From: an uncultured Planctomycetaceae bacterium
Lineage (GTDB): Bacteria > Planctomycetota > Planctomycetia > Isosphaerales > Isosphaeraceae
DNA: 64,000 nt
Direction of reading: 5' to 3'
Assembly (NCBI GenBank): GCA_963833985.1
Contig: CAWIAD010000001.1
Span: forward strand, 2,092,271-2,156,270
The translations under genes and the position numbers were made by a program. This document shows, in pieces, positions 1 through 34,300 of the stretch. The notes under the pieces were generated by a model. That model did not search any database. It saw only the letters and a program-made list of their open reading frames with translations, and was not told where the DNA came from. Positions within the stretch are counted from its first letter, which is position 1. The number at the start of each line of letters is the position of its first letter.

Positions 1-1539
1 TTCGACCGCATTGCGGCGGGCTTGAACAGCTCGTCGAGGTTCGGCACCGAGCCGTTGTGCAGGTACGGAGCCGTGGCCCAGATGCCATTGAGCGGCCGGG
101 CCTTGTACTGCACCGCCGGGACCGTCTGCGGAACGAATTGCCCCGCGGCAGCCACGTTGCCGATCCGGATTTGCGACAGGTAGTCGTGGGGCGCAGGCCA
201 GTAAGAGCCGAGGATCGTACCGATCACCTCGTTGGTCACCATGACCGATGCGCTCGCGACTGGCGGGATCCGGGTCGTGAACGGAACCAGGTTCACGTTC
301 GCTCCTTCAAGCTTGCCGGAGCGCCCGGTCCGGTTGAAGAAGTTGAGATACGTTGCGGGATCCGTCTGGTCTGGCTTCATGTAGGAGACGATCACCCGGT
401 TGGGATCCTTGCGATTGGCCACCACCGTATGGCAGGTGTCACACTTGAGCCGCTGGTAAATCGCCTGGCCCCTGGCCGCGTCGGCCTGCTGGATTGGAGG
501 AAACCCCGCCGGCCACTGCGGCGACCAGAGGGTCTTCAAGAGGTTCTCCAAGTCTGCGAGATTGCGCAGTGCGCACGGACGACGAATACCCCAGGGGCGA
601 CGGGTCGTCCGGAATCGTGAAGTCGGCAAAGACGCCGAGGACCTCGCCGACATTGCGTGCGAGGCTTTCGGCATCCAGCGGTCCGCCGCTCTTGGCAATG
701 CCGATCCACTGCTCCAGCTCCTGAAAGGGCGTATCCCAGATGAACGGATAACTCACCGGGGCGTTCGCCGGCTGCGTATTGTCGACCGGCGAGGCGGGTG
801 ACTTGAGCGCGTGGTAAAACACCTCGTTGACGATCGCTCCGACTGCGTCGAGGCGGCCATACTCGTCCGGCGCGGGGGCGGGGCGAGCGGGGTCGTATCC
901 CGGGAAATTCCGCTGGTTGTAAGCAACACGGCGGTCGATGACCGCGCCGATCTGGGCTTTCAGGTAGGCCTGTGCGGTGGGATTGTTCTGCTTGCCAAGC
1001 ACCCGCGCGGCGAAGCGCGCGAGCTTTGCCGGATCGTCGCGCGTCTGCTGCATCGCCGTGACCATGCCCGAAAGCAAGGCCCGGACGTCGGCCTGGGTGG
1101 GCGCCCCGTCCACGCGGTAGGCGGTGTCGCCAAGCCGGATCTCGCTGGTATGGCACGCGGCACAGGTCAGTCCCAGCCAGGCTCGACCCGTACCCTGGTC
1201 TGCCACGAAACCAACCGGCAGACCGTCGGGATTGAGGGCGCCAGACAATTGCGGCAAGTAGCGGTATTTGAGGATATTTTGATTATCCCGGAAGAGGGTC
1301 GCCGAATCGGGCTGCTCGAGTGCCAGGAACCAGTCGTAGGGGATGATCTGCGATCCCTGCGACGTGAAGTAAAACCGCAGGCTGACCGCGGGGGACCAGC
1401 CCTGATCGAGATAGACGACCTTCGTCGCCGGTTCGCCCAGCGGGTCTGCCGTGGGCACGAACGCGTCGCGTGAAGGGCCCGGTTCGTCGGCCGCGGCCGG
1501 GCACGACAGCACCAGCGCCATGAGGACAGGGCCAAGCAT
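1..1539 (-). CDS. Diheme cytochrome c peroxidase/RoxA-like secreted protein; apparent frameshift near 572; runs off the window's left edge
   Basis: Signal-like N-terminus MLGPVLMALVLSCPAAA and heme motif CAACH. A second frame continues NLADLENLLKTLWSPQWP...CDTCH...YKARPLNGIWATAPYLHNGSVP. Confidence 0.7.
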
Positions 1540-1823
1540 GGTGGAAGTCTCCGTGAAAGTTGCTCGCACGAGGTGGCAATTGCGTTGAGAAACGCCGAAA
1601 GCGTCCGAAAGGATTCCGTATTTTAGCGGTCCTCGGGAGCAAAGCCAGACACGAACCACACGAATCAGCAGAGAACGGCGCGAGCGGGACGGGCCTTCCG
1701 GCACCTTGACAGCCTCTTGGCGCGGCCCCGATGATAGGCGTTTTGCCCGATCAACCTTCTTGACGGCCACGGCGCGTCCCGCCCGGGTTCTTCGGATATG
1801 CCGAAAAAGAGGAGCATACGCTG

Positions 1824-6667: not shown

Positions 6668-6703
6668 GGCTGGCCGGCGCTGCTAAGTAGAGCCTCGACT
6701 CCA

Positions 6704-6772
6704 GGAATGTGGGCCAGCCGCCCTCGGCTGGCTCAGGACGGCCGAGGGCGGCTGTCCCACACTTTCCCTCTT
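6704..6772. repeat. Dispersed REP-like palindromic repeat, copy 1
   Basis: GTGGGCCAGCCGCCCTCGGC...GCCGAGGGCGGCTGTCCCAC; 26 nt (6709-6734) are identical in reverse complement to 49409-49434. Confidence 0.8.
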
Positions 6773-6784
6773 CTGGGGAGCTAT

Positions 6785-7918
6785 TTAGACATCGATCACG
6801 TAGATATCGACATCCTTCGTCAGCTTCATGAGCTGATCGAGCAGCGCCCCGCCCAGGAGCCGCCGGTACCAGGGCCGCCGGCTCTTGCCGATGACGATGA
6901 CCTTGATGGCGTATTCCCGGGCGAACGCACACATGGTGCTGGCCACGTTCGGACCACGGAACTGCATGGGCAAGCCGCCAAGCTGCTGGGCGAGTTCCAG
7001 GTTCTTGCTCAGAATGCGCTGGGTTGCCGCATCGATGCGGGTGAGGTCTTCCGAGGGGGTCTGAACGTAGACCGCGTACCAGGGCGCATTGAGCCGGTCG
7101 GCAATCCGTGCGGTCTTGCGCAGCAGCGCCGAGGCGTTCGGGCTGAGGCTCGAGATGCCGACCATGACCCGGTCCGTGGTGGCAATGGGCGCCTGGTCGG
7201 CCTCGGCCCTGCGCGTGCGGCGGTCGATCAGGTGGGCGATCTCGGTGAGCGTGAGCTCGCGCAGCCGCGTGAGGTTGACGGGAGTGAAGAAGTTCTCCAG
7301 CGAGGTGTTGATCCGCTCCTCGGGATAGATCTTGCCTGTCCTGAGCCGCTCGATCAGGTCCTCGACCGAAACATCGACGTTGACGATCTGGTCGGCGTCG
7401 GCCAGGACGCGATCCGGAAATCGCTCCTTGACCTTCACGCCGGTGGTGCGTTCGATCTCGTCGTAAAGGCTCTCGAAGTGCTGGATATTCACGGTGGTGA
7501 TGACATGGATCCCGGCGATGAGCAGGTCTTCCACGTCCTGGTACCGCTTGGAGTGCTTGCTGCCGGGAACGTTGGTGTGCGCCAACTCGTCCACGAGGCA
7601 GACGGTGGGCCTGCGCGCCACGATCGCCTCCAGATCCATTTCCCTGAGTTGAACGCCGCGGTATTCGATGACGCGCGGGGGGACGATTTCCAGGTCAGCA
7701 AGCTGCTCCTGGGTCTCCGCGCGGCCGTGGGTTTCCACGATGCCGATGACCACGTCAACGCCCTGCTTCTTCAGCCGCTGGCCTTCGCGGAGCATGGCGT
7801 AGGTCTTGCCGACACCGGCCGCCGAGCCGAGATAGACCTTGAGTCGTCCCCGGGCCTGGCGGCGGATCAGGGTGAGGAACTGCTCGGGGGTTGGCCGGGG
7901 TGGTTCGGCAACGCTCAT
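6785..7918 (-). CDS. kdpD: Sensor-only KdpD (KdpD N-terminal domain plus Usp domain; no TM or kinase domains)
   Basis: RGRLKVYLGSAAGVGKT, VDELAHTN, TTVNIQHFESL, followed by a Usp domain; ends at about 377 aa. Confidence 0.9.
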   Translation of the reverse strand: MSVAEPPRPTPEQFLTLIRRQARGRLKVYLGSAAGVGKTYAMLREGQRLKKQGVDVVIGIVETHGRAETQEQLADLEIVPPRVIEYRGVQLREMDLEAIVARRPTVCLVDELAHTNVPGSKHSKRYQDVEDLLIAGIHVITTVNIQHFESLYDEIERTTGVKVKERFPDRVLADADQIVNVDVSVEDLIERLRTGKIYPEERINTSLENFFTPVNLTRLRELTLTEIAHLIDRRTRRAEADQAPIATTDRVMVGISSLSPNASALLRKTARIADRLNAPWYAVYVQTPSEDLTRIDAATQRILSKNLELAQQLGGLPMQFRGPNVASTMCAFAREYAIKVIVIGKSRRPWYRRLLGGALLDQLMKLTKDVDIYVIDV

Positions 7919-7934
7919 GGCCGTACTCCACGCC

Positions 7935-8500
7935 TCATTCCGCGGCCTGAAGCTCATCCAGGGCCAGGTTCAGCTTCAGCACGTTGATGCGCGGCGGTGC
8001 GCCGATGATCGCCGCAGAGTGATCGGTGTGGCGAGTGATCAGCGCCGGACCCGTTCATCGGGAAGATGGCGGGCGGCCGCGACGCGTCCTGCCTGGTAGA
8101 AGGCGGCCTCCGGGCTGATCTCGGGGTCGAGGCCGGAGCCCGAGGCCGTCACCAGGTCAACCGGAATGGGGTTTTCCGGGGTGGCCTTGAGCGCCTCCGC
8201 CCGCTCGACGACCTTCTTCCGGAGGTCGGGGTTCCTGGTGCCGAGGTTCGAGCCTCCAGCGGCGTCCGCCTTGTAGTCGACGGCCGAGGGGCGGGGGTGG
8301 AAATAACGGTCCGAGGCGAACGGCTGCGCGATCAGCTCCGAGCCGATCACGGTGCGATCGCCCCTGAGGATCAGGCTCCCCTCCGCCTGGTGCGGGAAGG
8401 CAAGCTGGGCCAGCCCCCACACCACCGTGGGATAGGCCACGGAACAGAGGATGAAGGAAACGAGGCAAGCCAGCAGGGCTGTGATGGACTCGCGGATCAT
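7935..8500 (-). CDS. kdpC: K+-transporting ATPase subunit C; apparent 1-bp frameshift near 8045
   Basis: GSELIAQPF, YFHPRPSA, DLVTASGSGLDPEIS; the RINVLKLNLALD tail is in the next frame. Confidence 0.93.
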
Positions 8501-8547
8501 GGTCAAGAATTCTCCAGTCCCAGAGCGTTGAAATGCAAGACCTCGCC

Positions 8548-10695
8548 TCAGCCCATGCCCACAAGGGCGAGCAGCGGGTCGATCAACATGTCGATGAGCT
8601 TGATGCCAGCGAACGGCGCGATCACGCCGCCCAGCCCGTACCAGAGCAGGTTCCTGCGCAGCAATGCCTCGGCACCGACGGGCCGATAGGTCACTCCCTT
8701 GAGGGCGATCGGAATGAGCATCGGGATGATGACGGCGTTGAAGATCACCGCCGCCAGGATGGCCGAGTACGCTCCGCCGTGGGTCGCCAGGCCCATGATA
8801 TCCAGGTTTTTGAGCTCAGGGAGTGTGACGATGAACATCGCCGGGATCACCGCGAAGTACTTGGCCAGGTCGTTGGCGATGGAAAACGTGGTCAGGGCAC
8901 CGCGGGTCATGAGCAGTTGCTTGCCGATCTCGACCACCTCGATGAGCTTCGTCGGGTCGCTGTCGAGATCGACCATGTTGCCGGCTTCCTTCGCGGCCTG
9001 GGTGCCGGAATTCATGGCCACGCCGATATCGGCCTGGGCCAGCGCGGGGGCGTCGTTGGTGCCGTCGCCCATCATCGCCACGAGCTTGCCGCCGTGCTGC
9101 TCCTTGCGGATGTAGGCCAGCTTGGCCTCGGGAGTGGCCTGGGCGATGAAGTCGTCCACGCCCGCCTCCTCGGCGATGGCCTTCGCCGTGAGCGGGTTGT
9201 CGCCGGTGACCATGACCACGCGCAGGCCCATCTTGCGGAGTCGTGCGAACCGTTCGCGGATCCCCTGCTTGAGGATGTCCTCGAGCTTGACGATCCCCAC
9301 GAGCCGATCGTTCTCGGCTACCGCCAGCGGGGTGGCTCCGCGCGAGGCAATAGAATCGACGGTCGGCTGATAGGCCTCCGGGATGGTGCCGCCTTGCTCC
9401 TGGATGTAGCGCGCGATCGTATCGGGCGCTCCCTTGCGAATCCGCGTTCCATCGGGCAGGTCCACTCCGCTCATCCGGGTCTGTGCGGTGAAGTCGATGA
9501 ACCGGGAGCCGGCCGGAGCCTCGCCATCAAGAGCGGCTGGCCTGGCCAGGTCGAGGATGCTCTTCCCCTCGGGCGTGATGTCGGCCATGGAGGCCAGCCC
9601 AGCCAGCCGTGCCAGATGACGGTCGGACACTCCGCCCAGGGGAACAAACTGGGTGGCGCGGCGGTTGCCGATGGTGATCGTGCCAGTCTTGTCCAGCAGC
9701 AGGGTGTCGATGTCGCCGGCCAGCTCGACGGCCTTGCCGCTCTTGGCGATGATGTTCGCCATGAGGGCACGGTCCATCCCCGCGATGCCGATGGCGGCGA
9801 GCAGAGCGCCGATGGTCGTCGGGATCAGGCAGACCAGGAGCGCGATCAAGGTCGGAATGTCGAGGGTCAGCTCGAAGTACCGGGCCATGGGGTAGAGTGC
9901 CGCGGTGACGATCAGGAAGATCAGCGAGAAGGCGGCCAGCACGATGGTCAGGGCAATCTCGTTGGGTGTTTTCTGGCGGATCGCCCCTTCCACGAGGGCG
10001 ATCATCCGGTCCAGGAAACTCTGGCCCGGTTCGGAGGTGACCTCGATGATGATACGGTCGGAGAGGACGCGCGTGCCTCCGGTCACCCCGGAGCGGTCGC
10101 CGCCGGCTTCGCGGATGACCGGAGCACTCTCTCCAGTGATCGCGCTTTCATCCACCGATGCCACACCGGCCACCACCTCGCCATCGGCGGGGATGACCTG
10201 CCCGGCTTCCACCAGTACAAGGTCGCCGGTGCGAAGCTGCGTGGACGGAACGAGCTGGCCGTCCTGGGAAGCGAGGCTTTCGATCCGCAGAGCCGGCGTA
10301 TCCTGTCGGGTCGCACGCAGGCTGTCGGCCTGGGCCTTGCCGCGCGCTTCGGCCAGGGCCTCCGCGAAATTCGCGAAGAGAACGGTGAGCAAGAGCAGCA
10401 GGGTCAGCGCGAACTGATAGACGACGAGCCCCAGCGCGGCACCGGTGATGATGGACTGCACGGTGACAATGGCCGTGAGCACGGTTCCCACTTCGACCAG
10501 GAACATGACAGGATTACGCATCATGGACCGCGGGTCGAGCATGATGAACGAGCGAACGGTCGCCTGGCGGATCATGTGGGGGTCGAACAGGCCGAGCCGG
10601 CGCGCCTGCCGCCTCTGGAGCTTGAACGCCTGGGCTTCGGCGGCGGAGCGCGGCGAGACCGTGGACTGGGTCGAGACTTCGACGCTCATGGGCAA
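8548..10695 (-). CDS. kdpB: K+-transporting P-type ATPase subunit B
   Basis: [33 protein letters not shown]. Confidence 0.98.
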
Positions 10696-10765
10696 GGTTC
10701 CGATGGAAGATGGATGGTGTCAGACCGGGAAAAGCAGCGGCGCAGTCGGGCTCTCCGGACAGAGC

Positions 10766-12502
10766 TCACGGCGTGATGGCCGACAGGTGGTCTGCCACCG
10801 GGCCAAGCACGAGGGCGGGCATGAACGACAGCGCGCCGACCAGGAGCACGGTCCCGAGCAGCATGCAGGCGAAGGTCAGGTTGTCGGTGCGCAGGGTGCC
10901 GGTGGAGTAGGGCACGCGCTTCTTCGCCGCCAGGAACCCGGCCAGGACGATCGGCAAGACCAGGGCCGGAAATCGGCCCAGCAGCAACACCATTCCCGTG
11001 GCGACGTTCCAGGCCGGCGTGTTGTCTCCCAGGCCTTCAAAGCCGGAGCCGTTATTCGCGGACGCCGATGTGAACTCGTAGAGGATCTCGGAGAAGCCGT
11101 GCGCGCCGGGGTTCGCCGTCGCCTTCGCCCCCCAGTCGGTGGCCGCGAACAGGCCGGCCCCCGCCAGGATCAGCAAAGGATGCATGAGCATCACGATCAT
11201 GGCGAGCTTGACCTCGCGCGCCTCCACCTTCTTTCCCAGGTACTCCGGCGTGCGGCCGACCATGAGCCCGGCAAGGAAGACGGCGACGATGATGAACATG
11301 AGCATGTTCTCAAACCCGGCACCAATGCCGCTGAACACCACGTTCAGCATCATCATGGACAAGGGCACGATGCCGGTGATCGGGTTCAAGCTGTCGTGCA
11401 TGCTATTGACCGAACCGTTGGACGTTCCCGTGGTCATCGCGGCCCAGGTGGCCGAGGCGACCGGACCCAGCCTGGTTTCCTTGCCTTCCATGTTGGCGCC
11501 CTCGGCCACTCCGGAGAGGTTCGCCGTCGCGGCCGATGGCCTGGTTTCGGCCCAGATGGCCACCGAGGCCCCCACGACCATCAGGCTGAGCATCACGCCG
11601 AAGATCACCGCCGCGTGCTTCCGTTCCTTGAGCATCAGGCCGGCCATCACGATGGACGCCATGGGCAGCATGACAATGAGCGCGATCGATACGAGGTTCG
11701 TCCACGGGGTCGGGTTTTCGAATGGATGAGCCGAGTTGGGCCCGAAGAACCCGCCTCCATTGGTTCCCGCCTGCTTGATCGCCACCAGCGCAGCCACAGG
11801 CCCGCGGGCGATGGTTTGCGTCTCCATGCCGGCGCCTGCACCGTCGATCGTCTGCGCCGGGGCCGCGGCGCTGAAGGTCATGGGCGTGCCCTGGGAGACC
11901 AGGAACAGTGACACCACCACGGCGACGGGCATGAAGACATAGAGCAGCCCGCGCATCATGTCCAGGTAGAAATCACCCAGGTGCGTGTCACCGCGCAGGC
12001 CGCGGATGACCGCGAGCATCGCCGCCAGGCCCACCGCCGGCGTCACGAACATGAGCCAGACGATGCCACCAAGCTGGCAGAAGTACGAGAGGTGCTGTTC
12101 ACCGGAGTAATGCTGAAGGTTGGTGTTGGTGACGAACGAGCAGACCGTATTGAACACGACGGCCGTATCGGCGTCCTTGTGTTCCACTCCCGCGGCATCC
12201 TTGTAGCCGAGTGCGCCCAAGGAGCCCTTACCGTCAGGGTTCAGCGGCAGGTGCGGCTGCGCGTAGAGCAGGCCGAAAGTGATCACGAAAAGCGCGGCGT
12301 TGAAGGTCAGAAGTGCGAAGCAGTACTGCTTCCAGTTCATCGCCGCGGGCTGCCGCCGGCCGAGCAGCCGGCACAGGAACATCGGCACGGCATCGAGACC
12401 GCGTCCGATGCGATCCGGCCGCGGATCGAGCGCGCGGAACATCGAGTATCCCAGCGGCAACGACGCTGCGATGGGCAATCCGAACGCCCAGAACGGGTGC
12501 AT
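10766..12502 (-). CDS. kdpA: K+-transporting ATPase subunit A
   Basis: SFVTNTNLQHYSGE, GTNGGGFFGPNSAHPFENP, GRTPEYLGKK, SANNGSGFEG. Confidence 0.98.
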   Translation of the reverse strand: MHPFWAFGLPIAASLPLGYSMFRALDPRPDRIGRGLDAVPMFLCRLLGRRQPAAMNWKQYCFALLTFNAALFVITFGLLYAQPHLPLNPDGKGSLGALGYKDAAGVEHKDADTAVVFNTVCSFVTNTNLQHYSGEQHLSYFCQLGGIVWLMFVTPAVGLAAMLAVIRGLRGDTHLGDFYLDMMRGLLYVFMPVAVVVSLFLVSQGTPMTFSAAAPAQTIDGAGAGMETQTIARGPVAALVAIKQAGTNGGGFFGPNSAHPFENPTPWTNLVSIALIVMLPMASIVMAGLMLKERKHAAVIFGVMLSLMVVGASVAIWAETRPSAATANLSGVAEGANMEGKETRLGPVASATWAAMTTGTSNGSVNSMHDSLNPITGIVPLSMMMLNVVFSGIGAGFENMLMFIIVAVFLAGLMVGRTPEYLGKKVEAREVKLAMIVMLMHPLLILAGAGLFAATDWGAKATANPGAHGFSEILYEFTSASANNGSGFEGLGDNTPAWNVATGMVLLLGRFPALVLPIVLAGFLAAKKRVPYSTGTLRTDNLTFACMLLGTVLLVGALSFMPALVLGPVADHLSAITP

Positions 12503-12554
12503 CCAGGCATAAGAAGATCCCACAAATCACTCCTCTTGTGCAAATGGCTGTGAG

Positions 12555-12635
12555 TCAGAACCGTTCCGGCCGCAGCATGGCGTAGACGAGGTACACCAGG
12601 GCCGCCACGGTGACAAGCGCGGTGACATAGAGCAC
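12555..12635 (-). CDS. kdpF: K+-transporting ATPase subunit F
   Basis: (V)LYVTALVTVAALVYLVYAMLRPERF matches the KdpF YL..AL..PE.F signature. Confidence 0.9.
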   Translation of the reverse strand: MLYVTALVTVAALVYLVYAMLRPERF

Positions 12636-12654
12636 GTCGATCTCTCCCGGGAAA

Positions 12655-12735
12655 CTAGAGCCGGTCGCACGCGGCGACCAGGCCGAAAAAGAGCCCGAAC
12701 AGCAGCATTCCAAGGGCAAACGTCGCAATGGCCAA
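12655..12735 (-). CDS. 26-aa membrane peptide upstream of kdpF
   Basis: AGGAG RBS, TTG start, (M)AIATFALGMLLFGLFFGLVAACDRL; too short for the ORF track. Confidence 0.7.
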   Translation of the reverse strand: MAIATFALGMLLFGLFFGLVAACDRL

Positions 12736-12919
12736 GGTACGTCTCCTGAGAAGGGCCTTGAGGGTTCAAGAGACCCACGCGGGCCGTTTCCAAGCACCAG
12801 AAACGGGACAGAACAGTGATCTCGGCCGGGACTGCGGCTGCGGCCAGCGCATGTTCTGGCGATCCCCGGAAGTCGGCGTCGATCCCGCTTCGGCAATCGC
12901 CAGTCGCCAGGCCCGAACG

Positions 12920-13543
12920 CTACATTTGCAGCAGCTCTCCGACGGCACGGAACGAGAAGGTGTCAGGGTGCAGTCGGCAGGACTGAAGTGCCTGACGCAG
13001 CTTCTGCACCTGCGGCGTGCCCGGCCGGAGGCTGTCCGACACACGCAGGAAGAACTCGGCATCGTCGAACTCGCGGCGCTCCAGAGCCAGCCGGCAACGC
13101 CTGAGGTTCTCCTCGAACAGGGCGCTTGGACCAGGAGGTACCGGCTCCTGCCGATCCAGAGCGTGCCGGGTCGCGGCCCGGGCGCAGGCCTGGGCGGTGA
13201 CGGACCGCAGCGTGGTCGGGCTGATGGGCTTGGGCAAGAAATCCAGGGCACCGAGCTTCATCGCCGCCACGGCGTCGGGAACGCTGCCGTGCGCCGTGAT
13301 GATGATTACCGGTGTATCGTCGCCGGCATCACGCAGCCGCGCCAGGGTCTCCATGCCGCAGGCCCTGGGCATCTTCAGATCGAGCAAGATCAGATCGGTC
13401 GGCACCTGACGAAGCTGCTCGAGCGCCTCGTCGCCGTCGCCCGCCTCGGTCACCTGGTACCCGATCGCTTCCAGGGCGGTCCGGAAGACGAGCCGGACAT
13501 TGGGCTCATCATCCACGATCAGGATTCGTTGGCTCGTATCCAT
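12920..13543 (-). CDS. Response regulator with no recognisable DNA-binding output
   Basis: ILIVDDE, LLDLKMP, ITAHG, FLPKP, then a short helical C-terminal domain. Confidence 0.9.
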   Translation of the reverse strand: MDTSQRILIVDDEPNVRLVFRTALEAIGYQVTEAGDGDEALEQLRQVPTDLILLDLKMPRACGMETLARLRDAGDDTPVIIITAHGSVPDAVAAMKLGALDFLPKPISPTTLRSVTAQACARAATRHALDRQEPVPPGPSALFEENLRRCRLALERREFDDAEFFLRVSDSLRPGTPQVQKLRQALQSCRLHPDTFSFRAVGELLQM

Positions 13544-13568
13544 GGACTCGCCTGCATCCTCCCCTGAA

Positions 13569-15464
13569 TCAAACCTGGCTCACGGTGAGCCGGTTCTGGC
13601 CGGACATCCCGGTCCCGTCCTGCTCTTCCATGGCCGCCGGCAGACTGAACGTGAAGGTCGTCCCCTTGCCGAGCGTGCTCTGAACTTCGATCTGACCGCC
13701 GTGGGCGACGATGATCTCGTGCACGATCGCCAGCCCGAGCCCGGCCCCACCCTGGTGCCTTGCCCCGGGCGCACGGAAAAACTTGTCAAAGACGCGCGGC
13801 AGGAACTGTGCGGGAATGCCCTCGCCGCTGTCTTCCACCGTGAACCGTACCTGGCCTGGCTGCACGGCTGCCGCCCGCAAGGTGATGGTCCCCCCGCGTC
13901 CGGTATGCCGCAGCGCGTTGGTCATGAGGTTGTCGAAGACGTGCTGGATCCGCTCCCCGTCCACCAGGACCTGGGACAGATGCGGATCGAGCTGCGTCCG
14001 CAGCGTGATCCCTGCGTCCTGTGCTGCCGGCCTGTGCCGTTCGAGCGCATCGCTGACCAGCGACTCGGCGGCGGCCGGTTGCTGCTCGAGCGCCACGCGC
14101 CCCTGCTCGATCCGGGTCAGGTCAAGCAGATCATTGATCATGCCCAGCAGCCGGTCAGAATCTTGCCGCGCCGCCAGGAGCAACTCCGTCTGCTTGGGCG
14201 AGAGCGGCCCCACCGCCTCCTCGAGCAGCAAGTGGACGACCATTTGCAAGCTGGTCAGAGGCGTCTTCAGCTCGTGGCTGACGGTCGAGATCATGTCGCT
14301 CTTGAGCTGATCCAGGAGATGGAACTTCGTGACGTCGGAAAGCACGACCGCGGCACCGAGCAGCTCTCCCGAGTCGCTGCGGATCCGCAGCACGCGCGGC
14401 AGAAAATAGCGGTCCTGGTTGCCGTCGCGGAGAAACATCGCCTGTTCCAGGCTCAGCGGGAGGTAGTCTGCCTGACCCTGGAGCACGGAATCGAGATGCG
14501 CCTTGAGCGCCGGCGGGGCGATCCAGGGCAACGCCTCTCCCGCCGCATCGGGCATGACTTGCAGGAGCCTTCTGGCAGCCGGGTTGGCGCGCTCCACGCC
14601 TCCCTGGAGATCGACCACGACGACGGGATCGGGGAACGAGTCGATCGTGGCCTGAGCCGTCTTCTGGGCCCGCAGGAGGCGCAGCGTCCCCGCTTCGCGG
14701 TACTCACGAACCGTCCGGGCCATGGTATTGAACGCCTGACCCAGCTCTCCCAGCTCATCCTGGGTCGTCGCGGGCACCACCTGGTTCAGGTTTCCCTGCG
14801 CCACGGCACGCGCGGCCTGGGTCACGGCCACGATCGGTTCCAGGATCAGCCGCGTGAGCACCCGCGCCGAGGCAATCGCCAGGCCGACGGCCACCAGCAG
14901 CGCCGTGATCATCAACCGGGTGGAACTGGCCGCGTTTCGAAGTGCCTGCTCGTTCATCTCTTCCATGTTGCGCTGGTTCAGGAACAGGACGCGGTCCTCA
15001 AGCTTGCGAAGGTTTTCAAACCGGGGGAGGAGCCTCGCGAAATAAAGGTCGGCCCGGTCGGCGGTGGTGGTGTTCCCCACCAGCCTGAAGTAGTCGTCGG
15101 CCTGCTTGAGATACTCCTGGTACTCGGCTGTCAGTTCGGCAACGAGTTCACGCTCGCCGGGAACCGTGATGTTGTTCTGCTCCACCTGGAGCTGGCGTTC
15201 GAATTCCTCCTTCGACCTGTCGAACGAATCGCGAGCGTGGCCATACCGCCCACTGAAGGAAAACATGAGCGCTGAGTCCATCCGCTCGAGTGCTTCTTTC
15301 ATCCGTTCCACGGCAATCACGCTGCGGTAGTTCTCACGCAGGATCACGTCGATACTGCCTCCCAGTCCGTAGAACATGGCAATGGCCCAGAGCCCAAGGC
15401 CGATGAGGATTGCCAGCAACGGCAGGAAGCCAAACAGCAGCTTCAGTCGCAACGTTTTGAACAT
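13569..15464 (-). CDS. KinB-like HAMP/PAS sensor histidine kinase
   Basis: Two TMs around a helical sensor, HAMP (DELGELGQAFN), HELKTPL H-box, N/G1/F/G2 boxes. Confidence 0.93.
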   Translation of the reverse strand: MFKTLRLKLLFGFLPLLAILIGLGLWAIAMFYGLGGSIDVILRENYRSVIAVERMKEALERMDSALMFSFSGRYGHARDSFDRSKEEFERQLQVEQNNITVPGERELVAELTAEYQEYLKQADDYFRLVGNTTTADRADLYFARLLPRFENLRKLEDRVLFLNQRNMEEMNEQALRNAASSTRLMITALLVAVGLAIASARVLTRLILEPIVAVTQAARAVAQGNLNQVVPATTQDELGELGQAFNTMARTVREYREAGTLRLLRAQKTAQATIDSFPDPVVVVDLQGGVERANPAARRLLQVMPDAAGEALPWIAPPALKAHLDSVLQGQADYLPLSLEQAMFLRDGNQDRYFLPRVLRIRSDSGELLGAAVVLSDVTKFHLLDQLKSDMISTVSHELKTPLTSLQMVVHLLLEEAVGPLSPKQTELLLAARQDSDRLLGMINDLLDLTRIEQGRVALEQQPAAAESLVSDALERHRPAAQDAGITLRTQLDPHLSQVLVDGERIQHVFDNLMTNALRHTGRGGTITLRAAAVQPGQVRFTVEDSGEGIPAQFLPRVFDKFFRAPGARHQGGAGLGLAIVHEIIVAHGGQIEVQSTLGKGTTFTFSLPAAMEEQDGTGMSGQNRLTVSQV

Positions 15465-15495
15465 GCTCTTGCTCGTCACATCGAGACCCATTCAA

Positions 15496-15511
15496 AGCAA
15501 GCGCCATGCCA
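15496..15511 (-). promoter_or_regulatory. sigma54 (-24/-12) promoter
   Basis: TGGCATGGCGCTTGCT with GG-N10-GC spacing, about 30 nt before the kinase ATG. Confidence 0.85.
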
Positions 15512-15598
15512 GGCTCGTAGCCGCGAGCGGAAGTCATGGCCCGTCGTTGATTTATGATTTCTGGCCCAGTTCAGACGTGCGATCCGGGGCCGGCCGCC

Positions 15599-15650
15599 GT
15601 CATGCATTCCGCAAGACCTGGACCCCCGCGGGTCATGCAAGTTGCAAGAG
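15599..15650. promoter_or_regulatory. Tandem putative enhancer (UAS) sites
   Basis: GTCATGCATTCCGCAAGAC (15599) and GTCATGCAAGTTGCAAGAG (15632), 33 bp apart, each with a TGCA-N3-(T/C)GCA dyad. Confidence 0.6.
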
Positions 15651-15728
15651 CCAGAAGTGGGCGGCGTGCTTCACTCCAGGGCAGGGCGGGGGGGCCGTAC
15701 CCGTCCCTGCCCAGCGTCGCCGACCCGT

Positions 15729-17077
15729 TCAAAGCCCCAGTTGTTTTCGCTTGCGGTAAAGCGTGCTGGGATCGATGCCGAGGATGCGCGCGGCCTCATC
15801 CCGCGTTTCCGTGTTCTGGAGGATGAGCCGGATGTGCTCGGCCTCGAGTTGCTCGAGCGTGAACCGGCCACCCGGCCGGATCATTCCCTGGGGCCTCTCT
15901 GTCTCACCGGAAGGCGCGCCGGCCACACGTCCGGGCAGATCACCGAGCTCGATTGGACCGTCGCAAGCGAACAGCACGGCGCGCTCGATGGCATTGCGCA
16001 GCTCTCTCAGGTTCCCCGGCCAGGAGTACATGGACATTGCCTCCCGGGCCGCGGCCGAGAAGCCATCGGGTTTGTGGCCGAGCTGGCGGCTGAAGAAAGA
16101 GAGCAAGGCCGTGGCCAGCTCCATCCGGTCGGCACGCATACGAAGCGGAGGAAGAGTGAACTCGACGACATTGAGCCGATAGAGCAGGTCCTCCCGGAAT
16201 CGACCGGCGGCGACCTCGGTCTCGAGATCACGGTTGGTCGCCGCGATCAACCGCACCTCGGCGCTCTGCGTGCGGGTGTCGCCGACCCGCTCGTACTTGC
16301 GCTCCTGTAGAAACCGCAGGAGTTTGGGTTGCAGGGGCAAGGGCAAGTCGGCGATCTCATCCAGGAAGAGCGTGCCGCCGGCGGCCGCGGCCACCTTGCC
16401 GAAGGTATCACGGACCGCGCCCGTGAATGCGCCCGGACGTGACCGAACATCTCGCTCTCCAGCAAGTCGCTACTCAGGCTGGGGCAGCTTACCGTCACAA
16501 ACGGCCCGGACGCCCTTCCGCTCCAGCCGTGGATCCGCCTGGCAAGAACGCCCTTTCCCGTGCCGCTCTCGCCCCTGACCAGGACGATCGCGTCGCTGGC
16601 GGCCACGCGCCGGGCCTGCTGGAGGATCCTGGCGAGCTGCGGATCCGAGCTTTCCAGGACCGCCTCCGGCACCTCGCTGCGGACCTGCTCCTCGAGATCC
16701 GCGACGCGCCGGTGCAGCTTGCGAAACTGCTCCGTGCGCTCCAGCACCGCACGGATCTGTGCTGGAGTGAAGGGCTTGGGCAGAAAATCGAAAGCGCCTC
16801 GGCGCATCGCCTCCACCGCGCTGTCAATGCTGCCATGGGCCGTGATGATCACCACGGCCAGGTGGGGCCGTTCCCGGAGCGCCTGCTCCATGAGGTCCAG
16901 TCCCGATTCCACCCCCAGACGCAAATCCACCAGCAATGCGTCGTAGGAGTTCCGCTCGAGCTGCGCCAGGGCAGAGGACCGGTCGGTCGCCTCCGCGGCT
17001 TTGTGGCCCATGGCTTCGAGGGCGATCTTCAGGGTCTGGCGGATGTGCGGCTCGTCATCGACGACCAGGATGCGCAT
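15729..17077 (-). CDS. AlgB/NtrC-like sigma54-dependent response regulator; apparent frameshift near 16433
   Basis: Receiver domain; GESGTGK; GAFTGA is restored by adding one G; LFLDEI; WPGNLREL; [15 protein letters not shown]. Confidence 0.92.
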
Positions 17078-23624: not shown

Positions 23625-24681
23625 ATGACGGCCCCTGGGAACGATCTCGTCGGCGACCCAGGTTTCCGCGGCCGGTGTCGTGCAGCAGCGAGGCTCAACA
23701 TGGATGCTCGGGGCAAAACGCAGATCTGCATCTCCACCGTGGCCGGCGAAGATCCCGCAGCCGTGCCCACGGACACATCTCCCTTGCTCCTCTACCTGAT
23801 CATGGTCCGCGGCGGAGTACCGGGCACCATGCTCCGCCTTGCCCAGAAGTCCAGCAGCCTCGGCCGCTCGGCGGACAACACGTTCCAGATCCACGACAGC
23901 ACCGTCTCCCGGCGGCACGCCCTGATCACGGTTGATACCTCCGCGGCCGCGTGGCTCATGGACCTGGGCAGCACCAACGGTACGTTTGTCAATGGCCGGC
24001 GCATTCCCATGCACACGCCGGTCCAGATTGGTGATGGATCCAGAATTCAGCTGGGCTCGGCCACGCTGCTCAAGTATCTCAAGCTCGACCCCTGCGAGGA
24101 AGGCTTCCAGCGCGAGCTTTACGAACGCTCGGTCCGAGACAACCTGACCGGCCTGTACAACCGCGGCTACTTCCTCAGCCAGATCGGACCGCTTGCCGAG
24201 CTGAACACGATGTGCGAGCTTGGCCTGGCGCTGATCCTGGTGGACATTGACCATTTCAAGCAGGTCAATGACACGCACGGGCACCACGTCGGCGACCTGA
24301 TCCTCCGCGAGGTGGCGGACGTGCTCCGCGAGTCGGCCCGGGGAGAAGACCTGGTGGCCCGCTATGGAGGTGAGGAGTTCATCCTGGCCCTGCCGAGCTG
24401 CTCCCTGGAGCAAGCGTCGGAACTCGCCGAGCGGATTCGCGTCCGGCTCTTCGAGCCGGCTGGTCGAGGCCTCGGACGCGCGGGTGAGCGTGACCGCCAG
24501 CCTCGGCCTGTCGTTCGCACCTCCCGGCCGGATCCGCGACATCGCCGCCCTCATCACCGCGGCCGATCAGGCGCTCTACAGGGCCAAGCGAACCGGTCGC
24601 AACCGCCTCGTCGCCCACTCGATGAGCGACCAGGAACCGGGGCGCAAGACCGAATCCGCGGACGCCTTCGTCCTCTTCTGA
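23625..24681 (+). CDS. FHA-GGDEF diguanylate cyclase; apparent frameshift near 24450
   Basis: GR...SRRHA...DLGSTNGT (FHA); DNLTGLYNR, DIDHFKQVNDTHGH, RYGGEEF; tail VTASLG...ADQALYRAK in the next frame. Confidence 0.92.
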
Positions 24682-29566: not shown

Positions 29567-30160
29567 ATGCTACCTGGTTGGCTCCACTTCTCCGGGTCTG
29601 CTCTGGGGCCGGCAACTCCCGATGAGTACCAGCAAGCGGAGGCTCCATCACAATCGCCGGCCGCCCGCATTCTCTTTCTGGATGACGATCCCGGCCGGGC
29701 CCGGTTGTTCCTCAAGCGCCATCCCGTGGCCGTCTGGGTGCAAACCGCGGAGGAATGCATCATGCACCTTCAAGAAGATTGGGATGAGGTGCATCTGGAC
29801 CATGACCTGGGGGGCGAAATCTTCGTGGATCCAAACCGCGACGATTGTGGCATGGAGGTTGTTCGCTGGCTCTGCACCGACTCAGGACGGCCTCGAGCCG
29901 GGACCTGGTTTTTCGTTCATAGCCACAACTCCGAGGCCGCCGGCCTGATGGTACGTATGCTCCGGCAGCACGCTTACCAGGCCATCTATCGACCCTTCGG
30001 AGTGGACGTCCTGCACCGGGTTTCCAGCGACGAAGACACCACCGGCGACGGCGCCGAATTGCCGGCGGGACCCACCGGCGCGACGGGTTGCGCACCGCCA
30101 GCGAGCGCACCGGGTGTGCGCAGGTGGCTCGGTCGCTGGCTCCTCCGGTACCGCCGCTGA
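29567..30160 (+). CDS. Cyclic-phosphate-processing-type receiver domain protein
   Basis: [28 protein letters not shown]. Confidence 0.7.
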
Positions 30161-30335
30161 GCGCCCTGGCGGGCCATCTCCGGCCAGCGGTGAAGGCGTC
30201 GATGCCCTTCGGTTCGGGGCTGCGCGGGACCTTGCCGGTTTTGAAATCGCACCCGCTGCCGTATCATGGCGTACTGGTGAACGTGACCGCCGCGGTCACG
30301 GGGCTCGGGACGAGGTTCATGTCCGGAGGGTTGCC

Positions 30336-31385: not shown

Positions 31386-34300
31386 ATGGTTCGCTACATC
31401 ATCACGTGGAGTCTGCACAACCGGCTGATCGTCCTGCTCGGCGTGACCGGGCTGATCATCCTGGGTCTGAACTCGGCCTGGAACCTGGATGTCGAGGCCT
31501 ATCCCGACCCCACACCGCCGCTCGTGGAGGTGATCACCCAGAACCCTGGCGCCAGCCCTGAGGAAATGGAGCGGCTGATCGGCATTCCGATCGAGACCGT
31601 GCTCAACGGCATGCGCGGGCTCAAGTACATGCGAAGCACGTCGCTGGCAGGGCTCAACGACATCAAGTGCGTCTTCGAATACGGGGCGGATTACTGGGCC
31701 GTCCGCCAGGAGGTGATCAACCGCCTCGGCTTCGTGAGCAACCTGCCGCAGGGCGTGACTCCGGGTCTTTCTCCCTGGAGCCCCACCGGAGAGATTGTCC
31801 GCTACGTCCTGGAAGGACCGAAGTACACGCTGAACCAGATCAAGGCGGTGCAGGACTGGGTGCTCACCCGTCAGCTCAAGCAAGTGCCTGGCGTGATTGA
31901 CGTCACCGGTTTCGGCGGCACGGTGAAGGAATACCAGGTGCTGCTGGACACCCGGCTGATGCAGCAGTACGGCGTGACCCTCGACCAGGTGGAAAAGGCG
32001 ATACAGGGGGCCAACGCCAATGTCGGAGGCAACATCCTGACGCTCGGCAGCCAGGCCCACAATGTGCGGGCGCTCGGCCTCATTGGCGAGGGCATTGACA
32101 GCCTTGATCCGGCCAATGCCTCCCAGTCCACCCGGCTTGAGGGAATCAAGGTCCATGACATCAACCGGGTGGTCATCAATACCCAGGCCGACGGCACCCC
32201 GATCTTTGTGCGGCATATCGCCAAGGCCATCGTCGGGCATCACCCCCGGCTCGGCCTGGTCGGCCGGGCGACCATCAATCAGAGCAAGGGCGGTAGCGCC
32301 AGCGATGAGGACGACGTCGTCGAAGGCATCGTCCTCATGCGGAAATATGAGAAATCCAGGCCGACGGCCGACATGGTGCTCCAGAAGCTGAAGGACATTG
32401 AACGCGAGAAGCTGCTGCCCGAGGGCATGAAGGTCACGCTCTTCAACAACCGCACCGACCTCATCGAGGTCACCACGCACAACGTGCTGCACAACTTGCT
32501 TTTCGGCATGGGTCTGGTGATCGCCGTGCTGTTCGTCTTCCTGGGAAACCTGACCAGCGCCGGGGTCGTGGCGCTGATGATTCCGCTGGCGCTCTTCTTT
32601 TCGGTGAGCGTCCTCTACGCCCGGGGCGAATCGGCCAACCTGCTGTCCATCGGCGCCGTTGACTTCGGCATCATCGTCGATAGTTCGGTCATCATCGTCG
32701 AGAACATCTACCGGCACATCGCCACCCCGAGCGCTGACCGCAGCCGGAGCTGGATCGACCGCATCGCCGATGCGTCCCATGAGATCGAGCGGCGCTCTTC
32801 TTCTCCACCACCATCATCGTCTGCGCGTTTATTCCACTCTTTTCCATGACGGGGCCTGAAGGGGCCCTCTTCGGCCCCATGGCCAAGACGTATGCGTTTG
32901 CGCTCTGTGGCGCGCTCTGCCTGGCGGTGACGCTGGCGCCTGTGCTTTGCTCGTACCTGTTCCACGACGGCCTGCGCGAGAAGGACACCATCGTGGATCG
33001 GCTGATGAAGCTGCGTTACCTGCGGAACCTGAACCGGGTCCTGCGCTTCCGCTACCTCACCCTGAGCTTCATGTTCGCGCTCATCATCGTGACGGTCGTG
33101 CTGATTCCGCATCTCGGCGGCGAGTTCATGCCCCCGCTCGAGGAGGGGAACCTGTGGATCCGCGCGGTGATGCCGCGGACCACGTCGCTGGAGCAGGCCG
33201 CGAAGCTTGCACCCCGGCTGCGCGACGTGATCACCACGATTCCCGAGGTGCGGGGCGTGATGTCGCAGATTGGCCGGCCCGACGACGGCACCGACGTCAC
33301 GGGCTTCTTCAACATCGAGTTCAACGTGCCGCTCAAGCCGATGGAGCAATGGCGGAAGGATCGCTGGGGAAGGCCCATCTCCCGCGAGCAAATCCAGGAC
33401 GAGCTGGCGAAGCGTTTCGACGAGTTTCCTGGCCTGAACTTCAACTTCTCGCAGTACATCCGCGATAACGTGGAGGAGGCGCTCTCGGGCGTCAAGGGCG
33501 CGAACTCGGTGAAGCTCTTCGGCAACGACCTGGCGCAGCTCGAGGAGATCGGCAAGCAGGTGCTCCAGGTGCTCAGAACCGTTCCGGGAGTGGAAAACGC
33601 GGGGCTCTTCCACATCGTCGGCCAGCCCAACCTGGAGATCAAGATCGACCGCGACGCCTGCGCCCGCTACGGCGTGAACATCGCGGACGTCGAGGACGCT
33701 GTGCAGGTAGCCATCGGCGGCAAGGCCTTCTCGCAGATGGTCGAGGGAGAGAAGCTCTTCGACATCGTCCTGCGGCTCCCGCTGGAGGCGCGCGACGATC
33801 CGGGCGTGATCAGCCGGCTGCCGGTCAGCGTTCCCGGCAGCGGCCCCGACCAGCCGAGCTTCCGCATTCCGCTCTCACAGCTCGCCCAGATCACGCCGCA
33901 CAAGCCGGGCGCCTCGTACATTTATCGCGAGAACAACCGCCGCTACATCCCCATCAAGTTCAGCGTCCGGGGCCGCGACCTGGCCTCCACCATCGCCGAG
34001 GCCAAGCGGAAGGTGGACGACCCGATCAACGGCGTCAAGCGGCCGTCCGGTTACAACATCGAGTGGTCCGGCGAGTTCGCCCAGATGGAGCAGGCCAACA
34101 GCCGGCTGCTCTGGATCGTTCCGCTGTCAGTGGGCCTCATCCTCATCTTGCTCTACAGCGCCTTCAACAACTTCAAGGACGCCATGCTGGTGATGGTCAA
34201 CGTCATCGAGGCCTCGATGGGGGGCGTCTGGGCGCTCTGGCTCACCGGTACGCCGTTCTCGATCTCGGCGGCGGTGGGTTTCGTATCAATCTTCGGTGTC

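Follow-up and report, generated by a model that had tools for sequence, protein, structure and literature searches.

What controls the genes of a KdpFABC potassium pump when the genome that carries them encodes neither a complete KdpD kinase nor a KdpE regulator? The question is raised by a locus within a 64 kb stretch of soil-planctomycete DNA of ca. 65% G+C (the window, to whose positions all coordinates refer), which is assigned to the Isosphaeraceae (Planctomycetota) from an adjacent DUF1559/N-methyl protein and from related loci. All genes of the locus lie on the minus strand and encode an NtrC-type sigma-54 activator, a sensor histidine kinase, a receiver protein, the pump itself and a short KdpD homologue, referred to here as KdpD'. 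Judged from the sequence and its comparison with related loci, the locus is probably a sigma-54-dependent Kdp regulon, in which KdpD' would function mainly as a serine kinase and in which two apparent frameshifts would be artefacts.

KdpD' (6785..7957, minus strand, 390 residues, with the ATG at 7918 as a possible alternative true start) consists of a KdpD N-domain (PF02702, 3e-92) and a Usp domain (PF00582) alone, and harbors no transmembrane, GAF, HisKA or HATPase region. A protein of OmpR type (Trans_reg_C) is encoded by none of the open reading frames (ORFs) between 5486 and 19057. Both observations agree with the original prediction, made from the letters of this DNA, which had described a sensor-only KdpD and a locus without kdpE, and which had named transcription of kdp from a sigma70 promoter of its own, under a KdpDE pair encoded elsewhere, among the findings that would speak against it. 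Such a pair was looked for genome-wide: the 10.2 Mb genome contains one KdpD domain, that of the present locus, and no KdpE candidate. Three DUF4118 proteins are encoded elsewhere, all of them hybrid multi-PAS kinases with fused receivers and without an OmpR-type neighbour; on these grounds the existence of another KdpD, or of a C-terminal KdpD half paired with a KdpE at another site, was rejected. The two hallmarks of the canonical system, a full-length KdpD with transmembrane, GAF, HisKA and HATPase regions and an adjacent OmpR-family KdpE, are both absent.

Upstream of the pump genes and co-oriented with them lie the elements of a different type of control. The activator (15729..17077, minus strand) combines a REC domain, a sigma-54 AAA+ domain, an AAA lid and an HTH_8 domain (Pfam), and is separated from the kinase gene by a non-coding stretch of 218 nt on the same strand, containing enhancer sites and a promoter. 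The promoter, TGGCATGGCGCTTGCT (GG-N10-GC; 15496..15511, minus strand, read from 15511 to 15496), is the sole match with at most one mismatch to the sigma-54 consensus in the whole window, and from its position a transcription start near 15485 is predicted. Since the formerly assumed kinase start at 15491 lies upstream of this point, the start is placed instead at the ATG at 15464 (MFKTLRLK...), which is also the start in all orthologues. Further upstream, two dyads (15601..15646, minus strand), TGCAACTTGCATG at 15646-15634 and TGCGGAATGCATG at 15613-15601, form the putative enhancer or upstream activating sequence; their centres, 33 nt apart, precede the -24 GG by ca. 110 and 140 nt. Their consensus, TGCR-N3-YGCAYG in two copies about three helical turns apart upstream of a sigma-54 motif, was set against a background of 0.45 matches per kb, and the two copies are the sole TGCR-N3-TGCA-type sites across the window; a pattern with an N4 spacer matched nothing relevant and was rejected in favour of N3. 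The gene for sigma-54, rpoN, is present in the genome. The first description of the locus was accurate with regard to every element that it named, activator, promoter, kinase and second receiver included; it had overlooked frameshifts in the activator gene and kdpC, had begun the kinase too early, and has been supplemented here with a small ORF before kdpF.

The evidence that links these elements to the pump comes from the comparison of related loci, a synteny survey having been among the checks initially proposed. A scan with KdpD' returned 80 loci onto which the window proteins were mapped, yielding about 70 related loci in three gene orders. Type I, to which the window belongs, has the activator followed by kinase, response regulator, kdp and KdpD' (24 loci, a further 5 in which no activator is adjacent, and 4 whose upstream region was not covered). 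Type II, with the order kdp-KdpD'-kinase-response regulator, is represented by 3 loci from Singulisphaera genomes (L086, L087 and L088), while in type III, from the Gemmataceae and allies, kdpCBA is divergent from activator-kinase-KdpD' (10 loci, a further 5 in which kdp is out of view, and 6 lacking an adjacent activator). Through all three orders the kinase remains linked to KdpD' or kdp, in ca. 60 loci, and in at least 38 loci the genes for activator and kinase are neighbours. The activator orthologue of type II lies away from the locus and is recognised by 62–64% identity, against 48% for the next paralogue; in S. acidiphila it lies ca. 1 Mb from kdp, where the dyads and a variant promoter, YGGACCGCCATTTGCT, are still found upstream of the pump genes.

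The position of the regulatory DNA follows the pump genes closely. Among type I loci, 21 have a sigma-54 motif agreeing at 9 or more of 11 positions ahead of the kinase gene, in most cases identically placed, and 24 of 32 have a dyad upstream of that gene; the spacer that separates receiver gene and kdp contains neither dyad nor sigma-54 motif in these loci. Where kdp is headed instead by the small ORF and kdpF, a dyad lies upstream of these in all 3 type II loci and in 13 of 14 type III loci. A sigma-54-like promoter stands 0–160 nt before the small ORF as well, in 12 of 13 loci of type III and, as a conserved YGGACCGCCATTTGCT, in the three Singulisphaera genomes. The enhancer-promoter module thus always heads the operon that carries kdpFABC, whatever other genes that operon holds. 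Because the module moves with the head of the kdpFABC operon, the view that kdp would be controlled by this activator together with sigma-54, by way of a non-KdpD kinase and in place of a KdpDE pair, has strong comparative support, as had been proposed for the window. The same constancy across all types supports the further proposal that kinase, receiver, 26-residue ORF, kdpFABC and kdpD' of the window would form one transcript driven by the promoter at 15496..15511.

The survey also provides two arrangements of the regulatory genes that differ from that of the window. In Gemmataceae-type loci, L056, L067, L068 and L069 among them, an operon divergent from kdpFABC has kdpD' abutting the kinase gene or, often, overlapping it, which suggests translational coupling. 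In one Isosphaeraceae metagenome-assembled genome (MAG; L042, 5600-11100), activator, kinase, response regulator and KdpD' follow one another and kdpABC does not lie between them; the regulatory genes are therefore separable from those of the pump.

As deposited, the activator and kdpC are both interrupted. The activator is split over two frames (ORFs 17131-16247 and 16394-15729), of which the former carries REC and positions 4–75 of the Sigma54_activat profile and the latter positions 90–167, the lid and HTH_8 (Pfam). The junction corresponds to a 1-nt deletion at 16434-16432, with GGG in place of the GGGG of relatives, within the codons for VRGAFTGA and directly before GCGC. In a DNA alignment of this site, 7 of 8 relatives have one extra base; the gap is shared solely by a Nanopore MAG (L015), which is not the closest relative. 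Intact activator orthologues of 464 residues with GAFTGA occur in relatives (e.g., L009), and no second copy of the activator exists in the genome itself, where the next paralogue is 40% identical. The assembled kdpC encodes 155 residues and ends at a stop at 8039, since a 1-nt deletion near 8047 (GGCGC) conceals the last ca. 35 residues; PF02669 accordingly covers just positions 3–151 of 182, and the remainder runs in another frame to a stop at 7937-7935, which gives the full gene the coordinates 7935..8506 (minus strand). The KdpC of S. acidiphila has 190 residues, and its C-terminus, IGAPPRINVL.LNLALD, is found in the second frame of the window.

These two lesions are part of a wider pattern. 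A likelihood-based frame plot was used to scan the genome for junctions, defined as switches of coding frame on one strand without a gene boundary, and detected 731–927 of them; for 83% of the junctions, compared with 37% of control coding windows, a GCGC is found no more than 25 nt away, and CTGCGC is enriched 4.4-fold. CCGG, weighed as the motif linked to the errors, was discarded (0.51, controls 0.45). Five junctions fall in the window, three of which were confirmed as single domains split across frames, in the activator, in an FHA-GGDEF protein near 24455 (ca. 24455-24482) and in an AcrB-type pump near 32789, and the deletions in the activator (GGGCGC), kdpC (GGCGC) and AcrB (GGCGC) genes all abut GCGC. 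Given the number of such junctions and their proximity to GCGC, the frameshifts of the activator and kdpC are very probably systematic, motif-linked base-calling deletions rather than real lesions, an error that is possibly linked to methylation. Programmed frameshifting in the activator was also considered and rejected, because 7 of 8 aligned relatives have a single frame and the site fits the genome-wide error pattern. Two further places in the window show similar features: an ORF at 29660-30321 (plus strand) has a cREC_REC receiver domain followed by a frame switch of the same kind, its second piece containing no recognised domain, and the gene of a RoxA-like cytochrome c protein at 1-1557 (minus strand) has a frame switch near 570-600 which is possibly a further frameshift of assembly origin. 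With hundreds of single-base deletions linked to GCGC, the assembly would contain false pseudogenes, two of them in the kdp locus.

The function of KdpD' can be approached through the biochemistry of its homologues. The KdpD N-domain is an atypical serine kinase whose target is Ser162 of the KdpB TGES motif and whose action inhibits the pump when K+ is high, and species that lack KdpE commonly have short proteins with only KdpD and Usp domains (Silberberg et al., 2024, PMC11018627). In the window, KdpD' aligns over 213 residues to the KdpD N-domain structure 2R8R (2.6e-67) and retains an intact Walker A motif, GSAAGVGKT (G-X5-GKT), and Walker B motif, VDELAH, while KdpB retains an ITGES motif with the regulatory serine and the Glu before it. 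Among NCBIfam models, KdpD' scores 385 bits against NF038185, a "KdpD-like non-kinase potassium sensor", at positions 3–370 of 373 and under the curated cut-off of 550, and 351 bits over residues 3–372 against the KdpD equivalog. As the serine-kinase activity of the N-domain has been established experimentally and the motifs are kept in both KdpD' and KdpB, this role is better founded than that of a sensor feeding the histidine kinase, and phosphorylation of KdpB is likely to be the primary function of KdpD'. With regard to the signal, the short KdpD of Deinococcus geothermalis is switched on by cyclic di-AMP (c-di-AMP) (PMC11018627). The present genome has three genes that encode a diadenylate cyclase (DAC) domain; the Usp region of KdpD' matches the E. 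coli-type motif RXXXR-X8-WXAVY as RKTAR-X8-WYAVY, and the c-di-AMP-binding motif SXS-X20-FTAXY only partially, as SLS-X20-WYAVY.

The sensor histidine kinase (13569..15464, minus strand) is composed of a transmembrane helix, a periplasmic four-helix bundle, a second transmembrane helix and HAMP, PAS, HisKA and HATPase_c domains, as assigned by Pfam and AlphaFold2, which models residues 1–222 as the bundle between its membrane helices with a predicted local distance difference test (pLDDT) score of 91.7. This sensor domain is kept in 49 loci across all three types of gene order. The label "KinB/AlgB-like" given to the pair at the outset is apt for the order of domains and fails at the level of sequence and fold. 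By NCBIfam the kinase is a generic HAMP-PAS HisKA protein (best WalK, PnpS and PhoR) and the activator a generic NtrC-family member (best AtoC, NtrX and NtrC), with all scores below cut-off, and the best Foldseek matches of the sensor are the four-helix-bundle domains 4k0d, MCP2201, PcaY, Tar/Tsr and NarQ, KinB not being among the top 50. The receiver protein (12920..13543, minus strand) has a REC domain, the only one recognised by Pfam, and a helical, TPR-like tail of ca. 90 residues, without a DNA-binding domain. In most Isosphaeraceae its orthologues have a longer tail with sub-threshold TPR matches. The gene always adjoins that of the kinase in this family and is absent from Gemmataceae-type loci; because of this confinement to the Isosphaeraceae, the protein is regarded as an accessory branch of the system.

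The pump genes follow after a spacer of 184 nt (12919-12736, minus strand), the longest gap in the locus. All on the minus strand, kdpF (12555..12635, 26 residues; PF09604, 1.1e-9; TIGR02115), kdpA (10766..12523; PF03814, 1.7e-208), kdpB (8548..10695; a P-type ATPase with Pfam E1-E2_ATPase and Hydrolase domains) and kdpC (PF02669) precede kdpD'. Directly upstream of kdpF, between it and the spacer, lies an ORF of 26 residues with a single transmembrane segment, LAIATFALGMLLFGLFFGLVAACDRL (12655..12735, minus strand), which ends in ACDRL and has no match among Pfam or NCBIfam families. Counterparts of 26–31 residues, likewise single-spanning and ending in C-[DE]-x-[LVI], precede kdpF in 51 of 55 loci checked, in Isosphaeraceae, in Gemmataceae-type loci and in one Verrucomicrobia MAG. 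The comparison thus brings to notice an unannotated peptide that accompanies kdpF, and whose role may be that of an additional Kdp subunit or of a leader peptide. At the other end, where kdpD' and the DUF1559 gene converge, a hairpin of ca. 22 paired bases (6705..6762, minus strand, RNA fold) lies just beyond the kdpD' stop; the surrounding 111 nt (6690-6800, minus strand) fold at -57.7 kcal/mol (z = -4.2, with 0 of 200 shuffles equally stable), a U-tract is absent after the stem, and the hairpin is likely to mark the 3' end of the operon. An Rfam scan of the locus at E <= 1 found no riboswitch or leader RNA, just a chance miRNA match, and a sequence scan of the locus, of limited power as planctomycete promoters are poorly defined, found no sigma-70 consensus and no excess of terminators above chance.

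Taken together, these features allow a mechanism to be proposed. Under K+ limitation or osmotic stress, the kinase would phosphorylate the NtrC-type activator encoded next to it, which would then bind the dyads and open the sigma-54 promoter using ATP. The resulting transcript, spanning kinase, REC-TPR protein, 26-residue ORF, kdpFABC and kdpD', would also place the kinase under positive autoregulation. When K+ is plentiful, KdpD' would phosphorylate the TGES serine of KdpB and shut existing pumps, so that transcription and pump activity would be under separate proteins. The REC-TPR protein may be a second phospho-acceptor of the kinase, serving as a phosphate sink or as a protein-binding output.

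Other accounts of the locus have to be weighed with this one, and the most substantial concerns KdpD'. As a soluble protein it may be a cytoplasmic sensor of K+, ATP or nucleotides which docks to the HAMP-PAS kinase, or to the complex of activator and DNA, and adjusts the balance of kinase and phosphatase activity, that is, a split KdpD that has been re-partnered, and such a role would be compatible with a serine kinase function. In canonical KdpD the same module is fused to a kinase, in E. coli the N-domain makes contact with the C-terminal half of KdpD, and KdpD/1-395 supplied in trans leads to constitutive kdpFABC expression (PMC2714519); the Gemmataceae-type operons, in which kdpD' directly follows the kinase gene apart from the pump genes, and the L042 arrangement point the same way. 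The kinase of the window, however, lacks the transmembrane and GAF region that the E. coli N-domain contacts and has a large periplasmic sensor of its own, the function demonstrated by experiment for the N-domain is the serine kinase whose motifs are intact here, and the co-location is equally explained if both proteins regulate one pump, such that we assign the docking sensor a modest chance of being correct. A more ambitious version, rather doubtful in our view, combines several such roles: KdpD' would be dual, both a KdpB serine kinase and a co-sensor docked on a non-KdpD kinase, the KdpD input module would have exchanged an OmpR/sigma-70 output for one through an enhancer-binding protein and sigma-54, the REC-TPR protein would connect to the pump in a phosphorylation-dependent manner, and in Planctomycetota and Verrucomicrobiota the 26-residue peptide would be new to KdpFABC, as its fifth subunit or as a regulator. 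Signalling of the kinase mainly to the REC-TPR protein, which would act on the pump or KdpD' by contact while another kinase or signal served the activator, draws on the constant adjacency of kinase and REC-TPR genes in Isosphaeraceae, even where the activator is unlinked (types Ib and II); it is made quite improbable by the Gemmataceae-type loci, which lack REC-TPR and keep activator-kinase-KdpD', and by the adjacency of activator and kinase genes noted above.

Two further alternatives would detach the pump from the sigma-54 switch. If kdpFABC-kdpD' had a promoter of its own in the 184-nt spacer, under other control, the sigma-54 promoter would merely autoregulate the kinase and receiver genes. 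The length of the spacer favours this, as does the weakness of a negative scan where sigma-70 promoters are poorly defined; the spacer, however, contains no sigma-54 motif, dyad, sigma-70 consensus or riboswitch, the dyads and promoter stand directly before the small ORF and kdpF wherever kinase and receiver genes do not precede kdp, and the precedent of Desulfovibrio vulgaris, described below, argues in the same direction, which leaves a separate promoter unlikely. The locus may alternatively be decaying, with real deletions in the activator and kdpC and with switch and pump both inactive, for both lesions are in the deposited sequence and that of the activator removes the GAFTGA loop essential for sigma-54 contact. 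Against this stand the roughly 730–930 junctions genome-wide and their association with GCGC, shared by both deletions (GGCGC/GGGCGC), the recurrence of the activator gap in the G-run of the more distant L015 while closer relatives are intact, and the other genes of the locus, which match their orthologues over essentially the full length; decay is hence very unlikely. The preferred reading of a sigma-54-dependent regulon with KdpD' as serine kinase has to bear several objections in turn. What it states of planctomycete kdp expression, start sites and activator binding is inferred from sequence, and the receiver partner of the kinase solely from gene adjacency; the deposited DNA encodes an activator without GAFTGA and a truncated kdpC, and the spacer could harbor an unrecognised promoter. 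Furthermore, the Usp motif is of the E. coli type and matches the c-di-AMP-binding one only in part, and the overlap of kinase gene and kdpD' in Gemmataceae-type loci hints at a closer partnership than a role on the pump only.

Comparison with known systems places the locus more precisely. The E. coli KdpD/KdpE pair likewise controls kdpFABC and has an N-terminal KdpD/Usp module homologous to KdpD', whereas the window lacks the transmembrane, GAF, DHp and CA half of KdpD and the OmpR-type KdpE, and has a sigma-54 promoter with distant enhancers in place of a KdpE-activated sigma-70 promoter. KinB/AlgB of Pseudomonas aeruginosa resembles the pair in the window in the kinase order (transmembrane, periplasmic helical, transmembrane, HAMP, PAS, HisKA/HATPase) and in the NtrC-family partner, yet no specific relationship in sequence or fold was found, and its regulon is unrelated. 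In cyanobacterial kdp operons, a short KdpD-N protein is encoded at the operon end and a separate protein provides the kinase function; the partner there resembles the C-terminal kinase half of KdpD and is joined by a regulator of OmpR type instead of a sigma-54 activator. The short KdpD of Deinococcus geothermalis shares with KdpD' the restriction to N-domain and Usp and the Walker A and B motifs, and the two systems have in common the TGES serine of KdpB, diadenylate cyclases and the absence of KdpE (PMC11018627). The species with such proteins have been read as having post-translational control only (PMC11018627), whereas the window encodes a dedicated two-component/sigma-54 system alongside; in addition, its E. 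coli-type Usp motif makes control by c-di-AMP uncertain.

The closest counterpart is DVU3334-DVU3339.1 of D. vulgaris Hildenborough, compared here by its published description. The sigma-54 response regulator DVU3334 (GAFTGA) binds upstream of the kdpFABC-DVU3336-DVU3335 operon, as demonstrated by DNA-affinity-purified chip (DAP-chip) analysis (Rajeev et al., 2011, PMC3333781; Kazakov et al., 2015, PMC4641369); DVU3336 is a KdpD domain/Usp protein and DVU3335 a PAS "sensory box" kinase, a split of the sensor on which the authors remarked (PMC3333781, PMC4641369). Both loci therefore have kdpFABC, a KdpD/Usp-only protein, a separate PAS kinase without a KdpD domain, an NtrC-type sigma-54 response regulator and no KdpE, and in the window a sigma-54 promoter heads the kdpFABC operon; the regulator is counted here on the strength of its GAFTGA-intact relatives, the GAFTGA codons of the window being broken by a probable sequencing deletion. 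The circuit is known in kind from D. vulgaris, with the same parts and the same logic. The two loci differ in order, which in D. vulgaris is kdpFABC-KdpD'-kinase-response regulator, while in the window the activator is a separate upstream unit and the kinase heads the operon; the window, from another phylum, adds the REC-TPR protein and the 26-residue ORF, and its kinase has a periplasmic four-helix-bundle sensor. Among the papers searched, none describes such a circuit for Planctomycetota. In the present loci the wiring is conserved across planctomycete families, and the window has lineage-specific additions in the form of a separate activator unit, a kinase-first operon, REC-TPR and a micro-ORF. 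From the comparison a testable regulon emerges, made up of a defined enhancer motif together with its promoter and cognate activator, in a phylum with almost no known pairs of transcription factor and target. A short KdpD without KdpE, read in a large survey as a sign of post-translational control only, would thus in at least two planctomycete families, as in Desulfovibrio, be accompanied by another kinase and a sigma-54 activator that supply the transcriptional control.

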